DNA of 64,000 bases from an uncultured Gemmatimonadales bacterium. GTDB lineage: Bacteria; Gemmatimonadota; Gemmatimonadetes; Gemmatimonadales; GWC2-71-9. The stretch's first letter is position 1; the number at the start of each line of letters is the position of its first letter. Positions 44,021 through 58,205 of the stretch are shown in pieces. The notes below the pieces were generated by a model. That model searched no databases and was not told the DNA's origin. It saw only the letters and a program-made list of their open reading frames with translations. A program made the translations under genes and the position numbers. Where the stretch lies: the NCBI GenBank assembly GCA_963739455.1, contig CAVUAK010000001.1:1856001-1920000 (forward strand). The letters are read 5' to 3'.

Positions 44021-46874
<2,854 letters not shown>

Positions 46875-49210: not shown

Positions 49211-49426
49211 GTGCAGTACCAGGAGATCCTCGCAGTCCTGTCCTACGCCGGAGACCACGGTCATGCGGTGCGGGTAACGACCGACGGTGCCGCCGAGGTG
49301 GTTGGGGTGCCCACCAGCGTCGACGACCACATCACGGCCCATGAGGTCTATCTCCGGCCTGCCGGGGCCGAGGATACCGAAATCTCAATCTCCCTCAGCG
49401 CCATACGGGCGGTCCAGCTGTTGTAG
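49211..49426 (+). CDS. Small hypothetical protein (71 aa)
   Basis: GGGGAG RBS before GTG; normal codon usage; beta-strand-like pattern. Confidence 0.55.
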   Translation: MQYQEILAVLSYAGDHGHAVRVTTDGAAEVVGVPTSVDDHITAHEVYLRPAGAEDTEISISLSAIRAVQLL

Positions 49427-49444: not shown

Positions 49445-49471
49445 TGAAACATTTGAAACATGCCCCACGTA
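49445..49471 (+). promoter_or_regulatory. Candidate ECF-sigma promoter of the paralog array
   Basis: TGAAAC (49445-49450)-N17-CGTA (49468-49471), SigW/SigM-like. Confidence 0.5.
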
Positions 49472-49536: not shown

Positions 49537-49794
49537 ATGGAAGGCATTCTCGCCATCATCTTCATTTTCGGCGGCGGCACGATGTTCCTGCTTGCCACCA
49601 GTCCGATAGGCAAGGCCATCGCCGAGCGCATCCGGAATGCCGGACCTGCGGCGGGCGCCGACCCGGAACTGCTTGCGGACGTGGACGCCCTGCGGCACGA
49701 TGTCGCGGAACTGGCGGAGCGCCTGGACTTTGCGGAGCGCCTGCTCGCGTCGAAGCGGGAGAACATCGAGCAGCTTCCCGGGGGACAGGGTTAG
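49537..49794 (+). CDS. PspB-like small membrane protein, copy 1
   Basis: TM, PIGKAIAERI, ELAERLDFAERLL. Confidence 0.8.
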   Translation: MEGILAIIFIFGGGTMFLLATSPIGKAIAERIRNAGPAAGADPELLADVDALRHDVAELAERLDFAERLLASKRENIEQLPGGQG

Positions 49795-49800
49795 GTCGTC

Positions 49801-50085
49801 ATGGAAGACATCGTCAAGTTCGGTCTGGTCGTCGCGATGCTGCTGGCCGTCGGGACGTTTACGCTGTTCATGATCCCGGTTTTCCTCCGGAACTACCGCA
49901 AGGCTGGTATGGTGGGGCGGGAACCCGGCGAGGAGCTCGATGCGCTGCGCGCGGAAGTCGACGACCTGCGGGCCCTGGCTCCCCGCATGGCCGAGCTGGA
50001 GGAGCGCCTCGATTTCGCCGAGCGGATGTTGACGCAGCAGCGCGAGGGCGCGCACCTGACGGGAGGGCCCGATGCCGCCAGGTGA
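49801..50085 (+). CDS. PspB-like small membrane protein, copy 2
   Basis: TM, coiled coil, ELEERLDFAERML. Confidence 0.8.
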   Translation: MEDIVKFGLVVAMLLAVGTFTLFMIPVFLRNYRKAGMVGREPGEELDALRAEVDDLRALAPRMAELEERLDFAERMLTQQREGAHLTGGPDAAR

Positions 50086-50353
50086 CATGGCGCCGGTCTT
50101 CATCACGAGCCTCATTATCGTGGCTGCGGCGGCGGTACTGATCCTCCGCGGACCGCTCGGGAGGGCGCTGGCTCGGCGCCTGGAGGGTACCGCCGGTCGC
50201 GACGAGAGTGCCGCCGCGGGCCTGGCGGATCGTGTGGCCGAGCTCGAGCAGCGAGATAACCGGTTGGTCGAACTGGAAGAGCGCCTGGACTTTGCGGAGC
50301 GATTGCTCGCCCAGCGCGACCTCGATCGCCTGCCGCGTGGGAGGGACCACTGA
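50072..50353 (+). CDS. PspB-like small membrane protein, copy 3
   Basis: TM, GPLGRALARRLEG, ELEERLDFAERLL; alternative ATG at 50087. Confidence 0.8.
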   Translation: MPPGDMAPVFITSLIIVAAAAVLILRGPLGRALARRLEGTAGRDESAAAGLADRVAELEQRDNRLVELEERLDFAERLLAQRDLDRLPRGRDH

Positions 50354-50718
50354 TGTTCCAGACACCACTGCCGGCGCCGCCGGCGCCACCCATGCCGGAG
50401 GCGGTAATCGTGTCGGCCGGTGGCGGCGGTCCGACGCTCTTCGAGGCGGTCTCGATTTGCGTCGTCGCGATTTCGTTCGCATTCGTCGCGTACAAGCTGC
50501 TGATGCCGCTCGTCCGCGCCTTTGCGGCCCGGATCGAGGGTCGCGGGACCAACCCGGCGCTGGAGCAGCGGGTGAACGAATTGCAGCAGCAGCTCGCCGA
50601 CGCCGACGTATTGCAGCACCGGGTCGCGGAACTGGAGGAGCGCCTCGACTTTGCCGAGAGGCTGCTCTCCCAGCGTGAGGAACCGTCACGGTTGCCTGCG
50701 GAAGGCGGGCGGCCATGA
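50353..50718 (+). CDS. PspB-like small membrane protein, copy 4
   Basis: Pro-rich N-tail, TM, PLVRAFAARIEG, ELEERLDFAERLL. Confidence 0.8.
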   Translation: MFQTPLPAPPAPPMPEAVIVSAGGGGPTLFEAVSICVVAISFAFVAYKLLMPLVRAFAARIEGRGTNPALEQRVNELQQQLADADVLQHRVAELEERLDFAERLLSQREEPSRLPAEGGRP

Positions 50719-51098
50719 CGCTCTTCCTGCAGGGAACAACGGTGACGGTGCAGGTACCGCCAATTCCGCCAATCCCGCCGATTCCGCCGATCCCTCCCAT
50801 CCCGGAGATTCAGGTGCTGCCGCCGTGGATGATGATGCCGCCCCAGATGATCGCGCTGATCACGATCGCGGCGGTCGCGGGAGTGGCGCTGGTGCTCTAT
50901 CCCATCGCCAAGGCGCTGGCCCGGCGTCTCGAGGGAAGAAACGCGAGCCCGGAGTTGATGCAGCAGATCGACGAATTGCGTGATCGGGTCCACGATCTCG
51001 AGTCGTCGCAGCATCGCGTGGCGGAACTGGAGGAACGGCTCGACTTCACGGAACGGCTCCTGGCGCAGCGGCGCGACCTCGAACTGCCAAGGAACTGA
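50715..51098 (+). CDS. PspB-like small membrane protein, copy 5
   Basis: (PPI)5 N-tail, TM, PIAKALARRLEG, ELEERLDFTERLL. Confidence 0.8.
   Translation: MTLFLQGTTVTVQVPPIPPIPPIPPIPPIPEIQVLPPWMMMPPQMIALITIAAVAGVALVLYPIAKALARRLEGRNASPELMQQIDELRDRVHDLESSQHRVAELEERLDFTERLLAQRRDLELPRN
50757..50804 (+). repeat. 9-bp coding tandem repeat encoding (Pro-Pro-Ile)5
   Basis: ccgccaatt ccgccaatc ccgccgatt ccgccgatc cctcccatc ccg. Confidence 0.8.
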
Positions 51099-51101
51099 CC
51101 C

Positions 51102-51377
51102 ATGACTGAAGCCGGCGAGTTCGCGTCCATGCTGGCACTCGGTGCCGGGCTCCTGGGTGCCACGCTGGGGCCGATCGGTCAGGCCTGGGGGCGTCGAATC
51201 GAGGCGAAGATTGCGGGTGGCGGACCCCACTCCGAGGAACTGTCGCAGCGCGTTGCCGACCTCGAGGCATGTGCGCAGCGCGTGGCGGAGCTGGAAGAGC
51301 GAGTGGACTTCGCCGAGCGCATGCTGTCCCAGCAACGTGATGCCGAGCAATTGCCGGCGGGAGGGAAGGACACGTGA
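51102..51377 (+). CDS. PspB-like small membrane protein, copy 6
   Basis: TM, GPIGQAWGRRIE, ELEERVDFAERML. Confidence 0.8.
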   Translation: MTEAGEFASMLALGAGLLGATLGPIGQAWGRRIEAKIAGGGPHSEELSQRVADLEACAQRVAELEERVDFAERMLSQQRDAEQLPAGGKDT

Positions 51378-51711
51378 GCGGACGGATCGACAACCGGTAC
51401 CTCATCGTGGCCACGATCCTCGGCCTGGCTGCCATCGGCGCCTTACCATGATGGCGATGACAGATGGGCGAGGACTTCGCCGTCCCGGCCTCATCGCCCT
51501 CGGCGTGGTCGGGGCCGTGATCTTCAAGGGACCGGTGGGGAAGGCGCTCGGGCGTCGCCTCGAGCATGGCGCGCCCGCCGAGCCGTCGCCGGAGTTCGTG
51601 GCGGAGCTGGACGAGATGCGGAGCAGGGTGATGGAGCTGGAAGAGCGCCTGGACTTCACCGAGCGCATGCTCAGCAAGGCGCGTGAACCCGAGCGGATTG
51701 ATGTGCGCTGA
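51374..51711 (+). CDS. PspB-like small membrane protein, copy 7 (indel near 51443, or start at ATG 51448)
   Basis: GTG 51374 reads a hydrophobic segment that stops at 51451; the next frame continues TM, GPVGKALGRRLE, ELEERLDFTERML. Confidence 0.7.
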
Positions 51712-51746
51712 AAAATCCCGGGGAAACCGTCATTAGATTCATTGCA

Positions 51747-51762
51747 TGGCACGGGTAGTGCC
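51747..51762 (+). promoter_or_regulatory. Candidate sigma-54 -24/-12 site, or palindromic operator, upstream of the ybjN-like gene and pspA
   Basis: TGGCACGggtaGTGCc with GG-N10-GC spacing; also an inverted repeat GGCAC/GTGCC. Confidence 0.35.
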
Positions 51763-51782
51763 GGCTACAGGGAGGCTCGGAC

Positions 51783-52179
51783 ATGGTGACGCGCGAGGAC
51801 ATTCAGAATTGGCTGGAGCGGCTCGATGCGGGCACGCTCGAGGTGCGCGAGGTGGAGCCGGGGTTGTGGATCGCCCGTTCGCCCGGACGGCGCCGAGGTC
51901 GTGGTGAACTTCGCGACGCCGGTGGTGATCCTCCGCGTGCGCGTCATGGAACTGCCCAAGGCAGAGCCCGGTCGCAGTGAACTCTTCCGGCAGCTGCTGG
52001 AATTCAATGCACGCGACCTGGTGCACGGCTCGTACGGGCTCGAGGGTGATCACGTGGTGCTGACCGACACGCTCGAGCTGGAAAACCTCGACTACAACGA
52101 GTTCGAAGCCAGCTTCGACTCGATTACGCTGGCGCTCGCCTCGCATTACTCGGCGCTCGCGCCCTACAAGGAGGCCTGA
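51783..52179 (+). CDS. YbjN / CesT-like chaperone-fold protein (+1 frameshift near 51883)
   Basis: GGAGG RBS; MVTREDIQ..., LFRQLLEFNA.DLVHGSYGL...LELENLDYNEF. Confidence 0.78.
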
Positions 52180-52185
52180 GTCGCA

Positions 52186-52968
52186 ATGGGGATCTGGGAT
52201 CGCTTCTCCACCATGTTCCGGTCGAACCTCAACGACCTGATCAGCCGGGCCGAGAATCCTGAGAAGATGCTGAACCAGCTGATCGTCGACATGAAGACGC
52301 AGCTGGGGAAGGCCAAGCAGCAGGTGGCCTCGGCCATTGCCGACGAGAAGAAGCTCCAGGCCGACGCCGAGGCGCTGCGGAAGCAGGCCGAGGACTGGGA
52401 GCGGCGCGCCATGCTGGCGGTGCAGGAAGGGAAGGACGACCTCGCCAAGCAGGCGCTCATGCGCTACAACGAGGCGCTTCAGGGTGCCCAACAGCTGCAC
52501 GACACCTGGCTCAAGCACCGGGCCGAGACGGAGAAGCTCAAGCTGTCGCTGCGCCAGCTGAACGACAAGATCGAGGAGGCGAAGCGCAAGAAGAACATCC
52601 TGCTCGCTCGAGCCAAGCGCGCCGAGGCGCAGCAGCGCATCCAGGAAACGATGTCGGGCATGTCCGACAAGGGCGCCTTCGAGTCGTTCGAGCGGATGGC
52701 CGAGAAGATCGAGGCGCAGGAACGGAAGGCCATCGCATCCGCCGAGCTGCAGGAGGAGTTCGAGGGCGACTCGCTCATCAAGCAGTTCGAGGTGCTGGAG
52801 TACCACGGCAGCGCCGACCAGGCGCTGCTCGAGCTCAAGCGGAAGATGGGCGTGCTCCCGCCGGCTTCGGGTGAGAAGGCGAAACAGCTTGGTCGCGGCG
52901 CTGGCGACGTACACGATGCAGAGCTGGTGGATGACACCGGCCAGGCGGACGGCACCACGCACGGGTAG
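52186..52968 (+). CDS. pspA: PspA/IM30 (Vipp1, ESCRT-III-like) family protein
   Basis: MGIWDRFSTMFRSNLNDLISRAENPEKMLNQLIVDM, DDLAKQAL, FERMAEKI, long coiled coil. Confidence 0.95.
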   Translation: MGIWDRFSTMFRSNLNDLISRAENPEKMLNQLIVDMKTQLGKAKQQVASAIADEKKLQADAEALRKQAEDWERRAMLAVQEGKDDLAKQALMRYNEALQGAQQLHDTWLKHRAETEKLKLSLRQLNDKIEEAKRKKNILLARAKRAEAQQRIQETMSGMSDKGAFESFERMAEKIEAQERKAIASAELQEEFEGDSLIKQFEVLEYHGSADQALLELKRKMGVLPPASGEKAKQLGRGAGDVHDAELVDDTGQADGTTHG

Positions 52969-52971
52969 CCT

Positions 52972-53108
52972 TGGGTCGTGGGTCGTGGGTCGTGAGGGGC
53001 TTCCATCGGGAGCCCCTCATTGCTTGGCAGGACTCGAGCGTTCAGCGATATTGCCGACCCTCGACTTGTTATTGACGACCACGACTCACGACCCACGACT
53101 CACGACCC
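52972..53108. repeat. Inverted heptamer tandem arrays enclosing a hairpin
   Basis: (TGGGTCG)3 at 52972-52992 and (CACGACY)4 at 53080-53107; internal stem-loop 52993-53019. Confidence 0.75.
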
Positions 53109-53109
53109 C

Positions 53110-54186
53110 ATGGCACAGCCACGCTTCCTCATTGTCGCCGACGGAGACTTCGGGCCCATGACCTCGAAGACCGCAAACTCGGTGATCCGGTACCGCCCGC
53201 AGCAGGTCGTTGGTGTGCTCGACCGGCAGTTCGCCGGCCGCACCTCGCAGGACGTGCTGGGGTTTGGCGGCGGCATTCCCGTGGTCGCCTCCATGAAGGA
53301 CGGGCTCGCCCTGAAGCCGACGGCGATCCTGATCGGCATCGCCCCATCAGGGGGGCGGTTGCCGGAGGAATGGAAAGCCTGGCTGGGTGAGGCGCTCGAT
53401 GCCGGGTGTGAACTCTGGAGCGGGCTCCACACCTTTCTCGGTGACGATCCGGTGCTCGCCGCGAAGTCGAAGGCGAAGGGGGTCGCGATTCACGATGTGC
53501 GCCGCCCGCCCGCACACCTCCAGGTCGCGGGAGGTCTCGCGAAGGACGTCGAGGCGTACGTGGTGCTTACGGTCGGCACGGACTGCAATGTTGGCAAGAT
53601 GACGGCGCAGCTGCAGCTGGTGGACAAGCTCAACGCGCGGGGAGTGAAGACCCGGTTCGTGGCGACGGGCCAGACCGGCATCTTCATCGAGGGCTGGGGC
53701 ATTGCGGTGGATGCCGTGATCGCCGACTTCATTGCTGGTGCCGCCGAGCAGATCACGGTGCAGGGGGCAAAGGACACGGACATCGTGCTGGTCGAGGGGC
53801 AGGGGAGCATCAACCACCCCGGCTACAGCGGCGTGACGCTCGGCCTGCTGCACGGCTCCTGCCCCGATGCAATGATCCTCTGCCACCAGGCGACGCGCGA
53901 CTACATCGGCGACTACCGGCAGGCGGCGTGGCTCAAGATTCCCCCGCTCAGCGAGTACGTGAAGCTGTACGAGCAGATCGGCTCGGCGGTGCACCCGACC
54001 AAGGTGGTCGGCATCGCGCTCAACACCTACGACATGGACGATGTCGCGGCTCGTCGTGCCTGCGATGCTGCCCAGGCGGAGACGGGCCTGCCATGCACCG
54101 ACCCGGTGCGGTTCGACCCGGCGCCGCTCATCGACGGACTGCTCCAGGATCGCCAGCGCTACCTCGCCCGTCGCCGGGCCGGATGA
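53110..54186 (+). CDS. DUF1611 family P-loop protein (DgcN-like)
   Basis: SKTA, GIAPSGG, SGLH, VGTDCNVGKMT, ATGQTGI, DAVIADF.AGA.E, VEGQGS..HP.YS.VTLGLLHG. Confidence 0.88.
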   Translation: MAQPRFLIVADGDFGPMTSKTANSVIRYRPQQVVGVLDRQFAGRTSQDVLGFGGGIPVVASMKDGLALKPTAILIGIAPSGGRLPEEWKAWLGEALDAGCELWSGLHTFLGDDPVLAAKSKAKGVAIHDVRRPPAHLQVAGGLAKDVEAYVVLTVGTDCNVGKMTAQLQLVDKLNARGVKTRFVATGQTGIFIEGWGIAVDAVIADFIAGAAEQITVQGAKDTDIVLVEGQGSINHPGYSGVTLGLLHGSCPDAMILCHQATRDYIGDYRQAAWLKIPPLSEYVKLYEQIGSAVHPTKVVGIALNTYDMDDVAARRACDAAQAETGLPCTDPVRFDPAPLIDGLLQDRQRYLARRRAG

Positions 54187-54213
54187 CCCCTGCCCCTGCT
54201 GAGGGCTGACCGA

Positions 54214-55137
54214 GTGCTGCTTCTCGACATGCCCGAGTTCATCAACCGGATCGCCTCCCTGCTGCGGGTGGATCCGGAAGTAGTTGTGCGCCGCCTGCTG
54301 ACGCTGGTGATCATCTGGGCACTGGCGTGGCTCGGTGACCTGCTGGTCCGGCTCCTGGCGCGCCGCATCGAGCGCGCCGTGGACGACGGCGACGATAGCA
54401 CCATGACCATGCAGGAGAAGCAGGGACGCACCGTGGCGCAGCTGCTCCGGAGCGTGGGCCGGCTGCTGATCGTGGCCCTGGCGCTGCTGATGACGCTCAA
54501 CCAGTTCATCAACATTGCGCCGATCCTGGCCGGCGCCGGTATCCTCGGCCTGGCCTTCTCCTTCGGTGCCCAGAGCCTGGTGAAGGACGTGATCACCGGC
54601 TTCTTCATGCTGGTCGAGAACTCGATCTCGGTGGGTGACACCGTGGAGATCGCGGGCAAGACCGGAACGGTGGAGCGCGTGACGCTGCGCGTGGTGCGCC
54701 TGCGCGATGTCGACGGGACACTGCACATCATCCCGAACGGCCAGATCACGACGGTGAGCAACCAGACCCGCGGCTGGTCGCGCGCGGTGGTTGACGTCAC
54801 GGTGGCCTACGAATCCGACCTGGACCGCGCACTCGGCGTGTTCCGGGAGGAGGCCGCCCGGTTCGCCGCGGACCCCGGCTGGTCGCGCCTGCTGGATGGG
54901 CCGCCCGAGGTACTGGGTGTACAGCAACTCGCGGAACGAGGGGTGACACTGCGCACGCTGCTGCGGACCCATCCAGGGAAGCAGTGGGAAGTGGCGCGCG
55001 CGTTCCGGCTGCGCATACTCGAACGCCTGGGACGCGAGCGCATCGCCATCGCGGCACTGCCCAGCGTGTCGGCCATGGGTGGCGGCGCCATCCGCAGCGA
55101 GGCAGTTACCCCGGGCACGATGGGGAGCGACGCATGA
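54214..55137 (+). CDS. Small-conductance mechanosensitive channel (MscS family)
   Basis: GAGILGLAFSFGAQSLVKDVITGFF, VGDTVEI...GTVE, IPNG. Confidence 0.92.
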   Translation: MLLLDMPEFINRIASLLRVDPEVVVRRLLTLVIIWALAWLGDLLVRLLARRIERAVDDGDDSTMTMQEKQGRTVAQLLRSVGRLLIVALALLMTLNQFINIAPILAGAGILGLAFSFGAQSLVKDVITGFFMLVENSISVGDTVEIAGKTGTVERVTLRVVRLRDVDGTLHIIPNGQITTVSNQTRGWSRAVVDVTVAYESDLDRALGVFREEAARFAADPGWSRLLDGPPEVLGVQQLAERGVTLRTLLRTHPGKQWEVARAFRLRILERLGRERIAIAALPSVSAMGGGAIRSEAVTPGTMGSDA

Positions 55138-57661: not shown

Positions 57662-58205
57662 ATGGAATACCGCTGGTACGCCATCCAGACGACTGCGGGC
57701 CATGAGAACAAGGTGCGTAGCCTGATCCAGAAGCGGATCGAGGACGACCCGCGGCCGGCGGAAGAGAAGCTGATCCGCCAGGCACTGGTGCCGACGCAGG
57801 ACGTGATCGAGATCAAGAACGGCAAGAAGGTCACGGTCGAGCGGAAGCTGTTTCCCGGGCTACGTGCTGGTCGACATGCAGATGGGGCAGGAAGCGCTGC
57901 ACGTCGTGAACAGCATCCAGGGCGTGATCAAGTTCGTGGGCTCGGGCAAGCTGCCGCAGCCGCTCCGCCAGGATGAAGTCAACCGCCTGCTGGGCGTGGT
58001 CGAGGCGGTGAGCGACTCGGGCGCGAAGGAAGAGATCCCGTTCCTCATCGGCCAGGTGGTCGAGATCACCGAGGGACCGTTCTCCGACTTCTCCGGCACC
58101 GTCGAAGAGGTGCTGTCCGAGAAGGGGAAGGTGAAGGTGTCGGTGAGCCTGTTCGGCCGGCCGACGAGCGTGGAGATGGACTACCTGCAGTTGAGGGGTC
58201 ACTAG
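57662..58205 (+). CDS. nusG: Transcription factor NusG (+1 frameshift near 57858)
   Basis: WYAIQTTAGHENKV, RKLFPG/YVLVDM, KOW domain GPFSDFSGTVEEV, VSLFGRPT. Confidence 0.95.

Follow-up and report, generated by a model that had tools for sequence, protein, structure and literature searches.

The window analysed here is a stretch of 64,000 nucleotides from the genome of an uncultured Gemmatimonadales bacterium (GenBank assembly GCA_963739455.1, contig CAVUAK010000001.1, positions 1,856,001 to 1,920,000 of the forward strand), in which an array of seven small membrane protein genes leads into a gene for a CesT/Tir-like chaperone-fold protein and then into pspA, which encodes the ESCRT-III-like phage shock protein PspA (Table 1). 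A preliminary description of this DNA had reported seven tandem paralogs on one strand, overlapping or at most 6 nt apart and sharing a motif, and the open reading frames (ORFs) and their alignment bear this out: the seven ORFs at 49537-51711 carry a common C-terminal motif, have 10 invariant columns and are 28-53% identical to copy 3, with successive junctions of +6, -14, -1, -4, +3 and -4 nt (copy 7 taken from the GTG at 51374). The gene after the array had been called YbjN/CesT-like; the CesT part of that name holds (CesT_Tir_1, E = 1e-24, over the cut-off), and the YbjN part is weaker (E = 2e-4). The pspA gene is the only copy found, giving the single match in the genome, and its closest relatives are in Gemmatimonadales or Gemmatimonadota genomes.

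Every paralog has a hydrophobic 19-mer (mean Kyte-Doolittle hydropathy 1.6-2.7) followed by three or four lysine or arginine residues, and copies 1 to 6 have zero or one such residue ahead of it. An AlphaFold2 model of copy 1 contains helices at residues 2-21, 23-34 (from a conserved proline) and 43-78. The paralogs are predicted to consist of an N-out membrane helix, a short helix after the conserved proline, and a cytoplasmic coil. Near-invariant D, F and R residues occupy the outward b, c and f heptad positions of a register assigned by pattern, which suggests a partner.

Table 1. Features of the paralog array and the genes that follow it, in window coordinates (ECF, extracytoplasmic function; dN/dS, ratio of nonsynonymous to synonymous substitution rates).
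Feature	Position	Strand	Remarks
Predicted ECF (sigmaW-type) promoter, TGAAAC-N17-CGTA	49445..49471	+	Motif upstream of array
Paralog 1	49537..49794	+	85 aa; most widespread subtype, 78/95 loci; dN/dS 0.13 in N-terminal part, 0.01 in motif
Paralog 2	49801..50085	+	94 aa; rare subtype, 7/95 loci
Paralog 3	50072..50353	+	93 aa; missing from 2/6 same-genus arrays
Paralog 4	50353..50718	+	121 aa; Pro-rich N-terminal extension
Paralog 5	50715..51098	+	127 aa; Pro-rich N-terminal extension; second core subtype, 71/95 loci
Paralog 6	51102..51377	+	91 aa; subtype in 31/95 loci
Paralog 7	51374..51711	+	Second N-terminal hydrophobic segment; frameshift near 51445
CesT/Tir-like chaperone-fold gene	51783..52179	+	PF22550; frameshift near 51886
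pspA (PspA/IM30, ESCRT-III-like)	52186..52968	+	PF04012, E = 9e-49

A profile of the seven paralogs, searched against 1.84 billion representative sequences at E <= 0.001, matched 2,910 clusters (50% identity), and no Pfam or NCBIfam model covers the paralog family above its cut-off. Members are present in 273 of 301 genomes sampled from Gemmatimonadota (a tally that includes one unpublished genome); the bacterial family to which the present genome belongs has many copies in 125 of 125 genomes, and elsewhere in the phylum there are mostly one to three. A second bacterial family has a divergent form, clearly homologous (profile probability 96%, with the motif seen), and four lineages gave matches in 2 of 18 genomes and PspA over its cut-off in 0 of 10, at a sensitivity that drops with distance. 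No relative was found on viral contigs.

The linkage to pspA that the preliminary description relied upon is conserved. Eighty loci were picked by pspA similarity, of which 68 have at least 1.5 kb upstream and 58 hold arrays bounded on both sides; at least two paralogs lie upstream in 67 of the 68, and copy number is 2-13 in the bounded arrays and up to 14 in open-ended ones, these being counts of profile hits that may include frameshift pieces, in genomes that are kin rather than independent. Among metagenome loci selected by the paralogs themselves, 35 of 37 informative stretches continue into the CesT-like gene or pspA, the other 43 of the 80 being too short to count. A single copy stands directly upstream of cesT-pspA in 9/9, 4/4 and 1/1 genomes of three other families, and within the class the number of copies beside pspA varies from zero to 14. 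The simplest history, drawn without a tree, would be that one ancestral gene before cesT-pspA was expanded in two families, stayed single in three, and was lost or moved in three. One pspA locus has neither an array nor a CesT-like gene, and its upstream genes are unlike the usual context, possibly owing to a misjoined contig.

The promoter motif upstream of the array occurs nowhere else in the window, against an expectation of 0.07 matches (6 of 100 shuffled sequences reach that count), and its two halves, TGAAAC and CGTA, are the promoter elements of sigmaW in Bacillus subtilis (PMC5758882). A sigmaW-type motif stands ahead of the first paralog in 57 of the 58 bounded loci, with a spacer of 17 nt in 52 of the 57, and the 80 pspA-selected loci contain 68 matches in total on both strands of 1.62 Mb. 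The motif precedes the single copy in 9/9 genomes of one family and 2/4 of another, precedes cesT in paralog-free loci of three families (10/13, 5/6 and 4/11), and lies upstream of dispersed divergent homologs at 8 of 17 places, as against one downstream and none on the opposite strand (these places represent 17 of 18 divergent matches, one sharing a locus). In its strict form it occurs seven times in the present genome, versus 0-3 times for other spacings. Elsewhere in this genome, sites are found before genes for an HtrA-type protease and small membrane proteins and before an efflux cluster.

A candidate partner for the array promoter is the SigW-like sigma factor encoded at C1:379837 of the same genome, for which the best NCBIfam match is SigW, below the SigW cut-off (146 of 209 bits). 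A strong match to it is found in 18 of 18 genomes, and in 16 of 18 loci the motif sits between the SigW-like sigma gene and an anti-sigma-like gene. The sigma gene forms a unit at C1:379760-383165 together with the anti-sigma-like gene, whose start resembles a zinc finger, and a third gene that matches bactofilin weakly; this unit is a candidate for the role of master envelope-stress regulator in the class. With the promoter elements and a candidate cognate sigma factor both present, the array appears, at the level of sequence, to belong to a sigmaW-type ECF regulon. The sequence TGAAACAT occurs twice, 9 nt apart (49445-49461), and some of the family share the doubled -35 word. A TTAGATT-like word before the CesT-like gene (51730-51740), seen in many loci, is possibly a second, housekeeping-type promoter for cesT-pspA. 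Scans for sigma70 promoters and terminators inside the unit returned nothing exceeding shuffled sequences, and a sigma54 promoter before the CesT-like gene (51748-51762) was rejected: it matches the consensus well, yet occurs in only 2 of 74 loci.

Homologs also occur in other settings. The present genome has seven further single homologs away from pspA, and at C1:2574344-2574715 and C1:57600-57872, as in other homologs, the motif is found in fusions and beside a PadR-like gene: one fusion joins it to a domain that we take to be TM2-like, another to an unknown domain of 240 aa that no Pfam model matches, and one homolog lies downstream of the PadR-like gene. Nineteen matches are longer homologs, and the ten inspected include paralog-CesT and paralog-PspA fusions, which were not accepted as real since they look like frameshift read-throughs. 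In the divergent subfamily, one to three homologs are flanked by genes for a histidine kinase and an NtrC-type regulator, in a family without a pspA-linked array and with the ECF motif upstream in 2 of 3 longer stretches; other homologs adjoin ECF sigma genes or PadR.

Clustering on the part ahead of the motif divides the paralogs into recurring subtypes (73 of 485 sequences fall in small clusters), and the smallest arrays consist of one gene of the copy-1 type and one of the copy-5 type. Against four to six same-genus orthologs per copy, dN/dS is 0.08-0.28 before the motif and 0-0.12 within it, with zero amino-acid changes in the copy 5 motif over six orthologs; by this measure all seven paralogs are under purifying selection, which is strong in the motif that had earlier been noted as constant. 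Gene conversion was rejected as the source of that constancy (synonymous differences of 0.50 within the window versus 0.48-0.53 across genomes), and diversifying selection on the N-termini is not seen by the averaged dN/dS test. Because subtypes recur, dN/dS is low and there is no sign of gene conversion, the sequences indicate that the copies are maintained as distinct proteins, with the rarer types turning over. The extra base at 51886 in the CesT-like gene is absent from 4/4 same-genus relatives compared, and the indel near 51445 is evident against 3/4, copy 7 being one open frame in relatives. Given the open frames of relatives and the frameshifts that also break uvrA and nusG in the same assembly (44021-46874 and 57662-58205), both interruptions are likely to be sequencing or assembly errors; a pseudogene array was rejected in view of the purifying selection and the intact relatives.

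In length (70-130 aa) and in the predicted succession of an N-terminal membrane helix and a cytoplasmic coil, as judged from hydropathy, charge bias and models, the family has the layout of PspB. A genome-wide scan with TIGR02976 (E <= 0.05, 32 genomes, 30 of 32 matches inspected) recovered the paralog family in 22 of the 30 inspected matches and in all of the best 13, and 13 control genomes other than E. coli gave no match at the same threshold. By coordinates in five genomes, the family accounts for 7 of 8 inspected PspB matches, 3 of 14 GspM matches and 0 of 7 CcmI matches. A possible bridge is found in Sphingomonas (plasmid NZ_CP155749), where an operon of pspF and pspABC includes three extra small membrane-plus-coil genes: profiles of these give probabilities of 38-84% with the paralog family and 52-62% with PspB, the only controls, reversed profiles, staying below 7%, and their coil aligns with the paralog motif in the register proposed in the preliminary description. 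Among named Atlas clusters the nearest are those of PspB, at 0.78-0.79, which is no more than a lead. A Foldseek search found no match, and a wide structural search was uninformative, returning generic helices only (Z up to 5.3). Six of the seven copies have the strict pattern R-h-x-x-h-E, as do 345 of 523 sequences, versus 43 after shuffling; because this motif is common to short three-stranded coils in general (PMC3653964), part of the likeness to PspB could be convergent. Remote homology to PspB is nevertheless fairly probable from these comparisons, and the paralogs are probably distant members of the PspB superfamily. Enterobacterial plasmids also carry the pspB gene itself, on about 450 records, with 80-90% identity to the E. 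coli gene.

PspC (PF04024) was not found in the present genome, which is 84% complete; among 32 relatives it is present in three, either on contigs other than that of the array or in an array-free genome. None of the 13 matches to sigma54 activators in the genome exceeds the PspF cut-off. The absence of pspC and pspF, reported earlier for the window alone, thus extends to the genome at this level of completeness. The paralogs were also considered as PspC and rejected (profile probability 1.6%; no TIGR02978 match in five genomes). With no PspC partner, no PspF over its cut-off and no conserved sigma54 site found, the locus does not qualify as a canonical pspFABC system. It does have the CesT/Tir-PspA adjacency, the CesT-like gene being present in 57 of the 58 bounded loci. 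In six genomes with an array and pspA, the CesT-like gene was not found with this query (which found 3/3 positive controls), and the array is therefore apparently independent of it.

With slightly better than even confidence, we read the locus as an ECF-driven Psp module in which the paralogs, probably distant relatives of PspB, are stress-induced membrane anchors or scaffolds for PspA. Envelope stress would free the SigW-like sigma factor from its anti-sigma factor, and, to judge from its motif, the promoter at 49445 would let the freed sigma factor transcribe the seven paralogs together with the CesT-like gene and pspA. The paralogs, predicted to be small inner-membrane proteins with the N-terminus outside, a membrane helix, a surface helix and a cytoplasmic coil, may assemble through the coil as parallel, possibly mixed oligomers, and the conserved D-F-x-x-R face of the coil could be an anchor or nucleation site that draws PspA to the membrane, by analogy with its recruitment by PspB/PspC in E. 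coli or by LiaI in B. subtilis. A more elaborate version, which we consider doubtful, is that the paralogs form combinatorial mixed coiled-coil oligomers with a common PspA docking face, and that the membrane or periplasmic end of each subtype reads a different lipid, protein or lesion. If true, the array would be an expandable adaptor layer upstream of bacterial ESCRT-III, and copy number (1 to at least 14) would set the kinds of site that PspA can reach.

Several results weigh against anchoring of PspA by PspB-like paralogs. The array is dispensable, because pspA lacks an upstream paralog in 30/30 loci of three other families (0/13, 0/6 and 0/11 with a copy). The seven dispersed homologs of the present genome are located away from pspA, and the promoter motif is absent from the 220 nt upstream of them; in six genomes from more distant members of the same family it likewise went undetected before the first gene. 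No paralog reaches the PspB cut-off (PF06667 or TIGR02976): the best in the window scores 14.8 bits against a cut-off of 51.7, the best of 120 family members has E = 5e-6, and 0 of 32 genomes exceed the cut-off. The PspB-like identity put forward in the preliminary description is supported as probable remote homology in the proposed register, through the Sphingomonas bridge and the genome scans, and fails at the level of curated models. Direct profile comparison with PspB gives a probability of 4-35%, from a shallow PspB alignment (the sequences gathered are mostly 82-100% identical to E. coli); generic models are matched about as frequently as PspB among the 120 members scanned (GspM 46, CcmI 34, PspB 38), and the divergent subfamily shows no match to the bridge families of Sphingomonas (0.6-2%). 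E. coli PspB alone does not bind PspA in a two-hybrid assay, the leucine zipper of PspC being required (PMC3068692), and PspC was not found here.

Some of these results would be expected if the paralogs were co-regulated but independent sigmaW-type effectors, whose own oligomers stabilise the membrane or shield membrane proteins without contacting PspA. We consider this rather unlikely. Dispersed copies that keep the promoter and not the pspA linkage, the 30 pspA loci without paralogs, and the fusions to TM2-like and unknown domains would all be accommodated, and self-assembly alone could explain a motif that contains the general trimer pattern R-h-x-x-h-E. Against it, a copy remains directly upstream of cesT-pspA across five families, PspB-like genes having the same coil are clustered in alphaproteobacterial psp operons, and the outward, near-invariant D, F and R suggest a partner.

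The preliminary description had cast the paralogs as adaptors or sensors with variable sensing ends. Since regulation points to an ECF sigma factor, nothing indicates a PspB-PspC-type relay that ends at a transcription activator, and the genes look like induced effectors. Anchors or scaffolds are favoured over transcriptional sensors because the position of the genes, behind a stress promoter, is that of outputs, and no PspF circuit was found. It is accordingly improbable that each paralog detects a distinct envelope insult through its N-terminus or membrane helix and signals to PspA, an anti-sigma factor or a two-component system: PspF does not exceed its cut-off, the sigma54 site is confined to 2/74 loci, PspC was not found in the genome, and most N-terminal parts have only a few residues outside the membrane, even though these parts differ between paralogs while being conserved among orthologs, stable subtypes recur, divergent copies sit between histidine kinase and NtrC-type genes, and others lie beside ECF sigma genes or PadR. 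Least probable is that the paralogs serve the CesT-like chaperone, as clients or partners, and not PspA. In favour of this, the CesT-like gene directly follows the array, has its start overlapped by the last paralog in many loci and is present in 57 of the 58 bounded ones; against it, the gene goes undetected in six genomes with an array and has no neighbouring paralog in three families.

The locus is made of parts of known kinds. The row for Erythrobacter litoralis AOL22920.1 in the supplement of PMC11237479 lists, next to pspA, a PspC-PspB fusion together with six genes of PspB type, and the same source describes the CesT/Tir-PspA dyad (YjfI-YjfJ type) and PspB duplicates. The suggestion of an undescribed Psp system is to be narrowed: a tandem PspB set beside pspA has been published, as have CesT-PspA pairs and sigmaW-driven pspA, whereas the present paralog family and the combination were not found in the literature searched. 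Erythrobacter and Sphingomonas share with the present locus a run of small membrane-plus-coil genes beside pspA, and the extra genes of Sphingomonas appear, from gene order and profile match, to be of the same kind as the PspB-type genes of Erythrobacter. The alphaproteobacterial operons differ in having PspC and PspF, with the extra genes after pspA, whereas here the array precedes cesT-pspA behind an ECF-type promoter. Enterobacterial PspB/PspC resembles the paralogs in size, in having one membrane helix and a cytoplasmic coil, in the E-R-h-x-x-h-E register and in linkage to pspA, but the paralogs are below curated cut-offs, number 1-14 rather than one, and have no PspC and no sigma54/PspF circuit.

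The position of the CesT-like gene directly upstream of pspA is that of the CesT/Tir-PspA dyad; the larger operons of this type in section 19 of PMC11237479 add band-7, AAA+ or polyamine genes, and none there has a membrane array. In B. subtilis, sigmaW drives pspA-ydjGHI, and the co-transcribed membrane partners are required for membrane localisation of PspA (PMC8581546); LiaI recruits the LiaH-type PspA homolog to the membrane (PMC7619361). These systems likewise join an ECF-driven PspA homolog to membrane partners, with the same promoter elements, but the paralog family shows no Pfam or NCBIfam match to those partners, and no paralog array is described there. Gemmatimonadota are unmentioned in the main text and supplement of PMC11237479, and in main-text term searches of PMC9239133 and PMC3041696. 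Among the papers listed on phage shock proteins in Gemmatimonadota, none concerns the present locus by its title or the opening of its abstract, and the web tables of PMC11237479 or external data of PMC9239133 may list the neighbourhood.

The routing of bacterial ESCRT-III proteins to damaged membrane is understood in few systems, and the locus offers a candidate partner family together with a natural series in which pspA has from zero to 14 neighbouring copies within a single class, as well as a predicted ECF stress regulon for a little-studied phylum. The two-gene arrays of relatives make a minimal reconstitution practical. The family is also a hint that current models miss part of the range of PspB-like proteins, and that such proteins can occur in the absence of PspC and PspF.

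A 71-aa ORF with no Pfam or NCBIfam match (49211-49426) lies before the array and is conserved there in many relatives; being located ahead of the promoter, it probably belongs to the upstream uvrA-peptidase unit. Downstream of pspA are a DUF1611/DgcN-like gene and an MscS channel gene (53110-55137), of which the DUF1611 gene usually follows pspA throughout the class. The spacer between pspA and the following gene contains a 24-nt inverted repeat of 7-nt units (52973-52996 and 53085-53108), which encloses a 12-bp hairpin (52993-53019).

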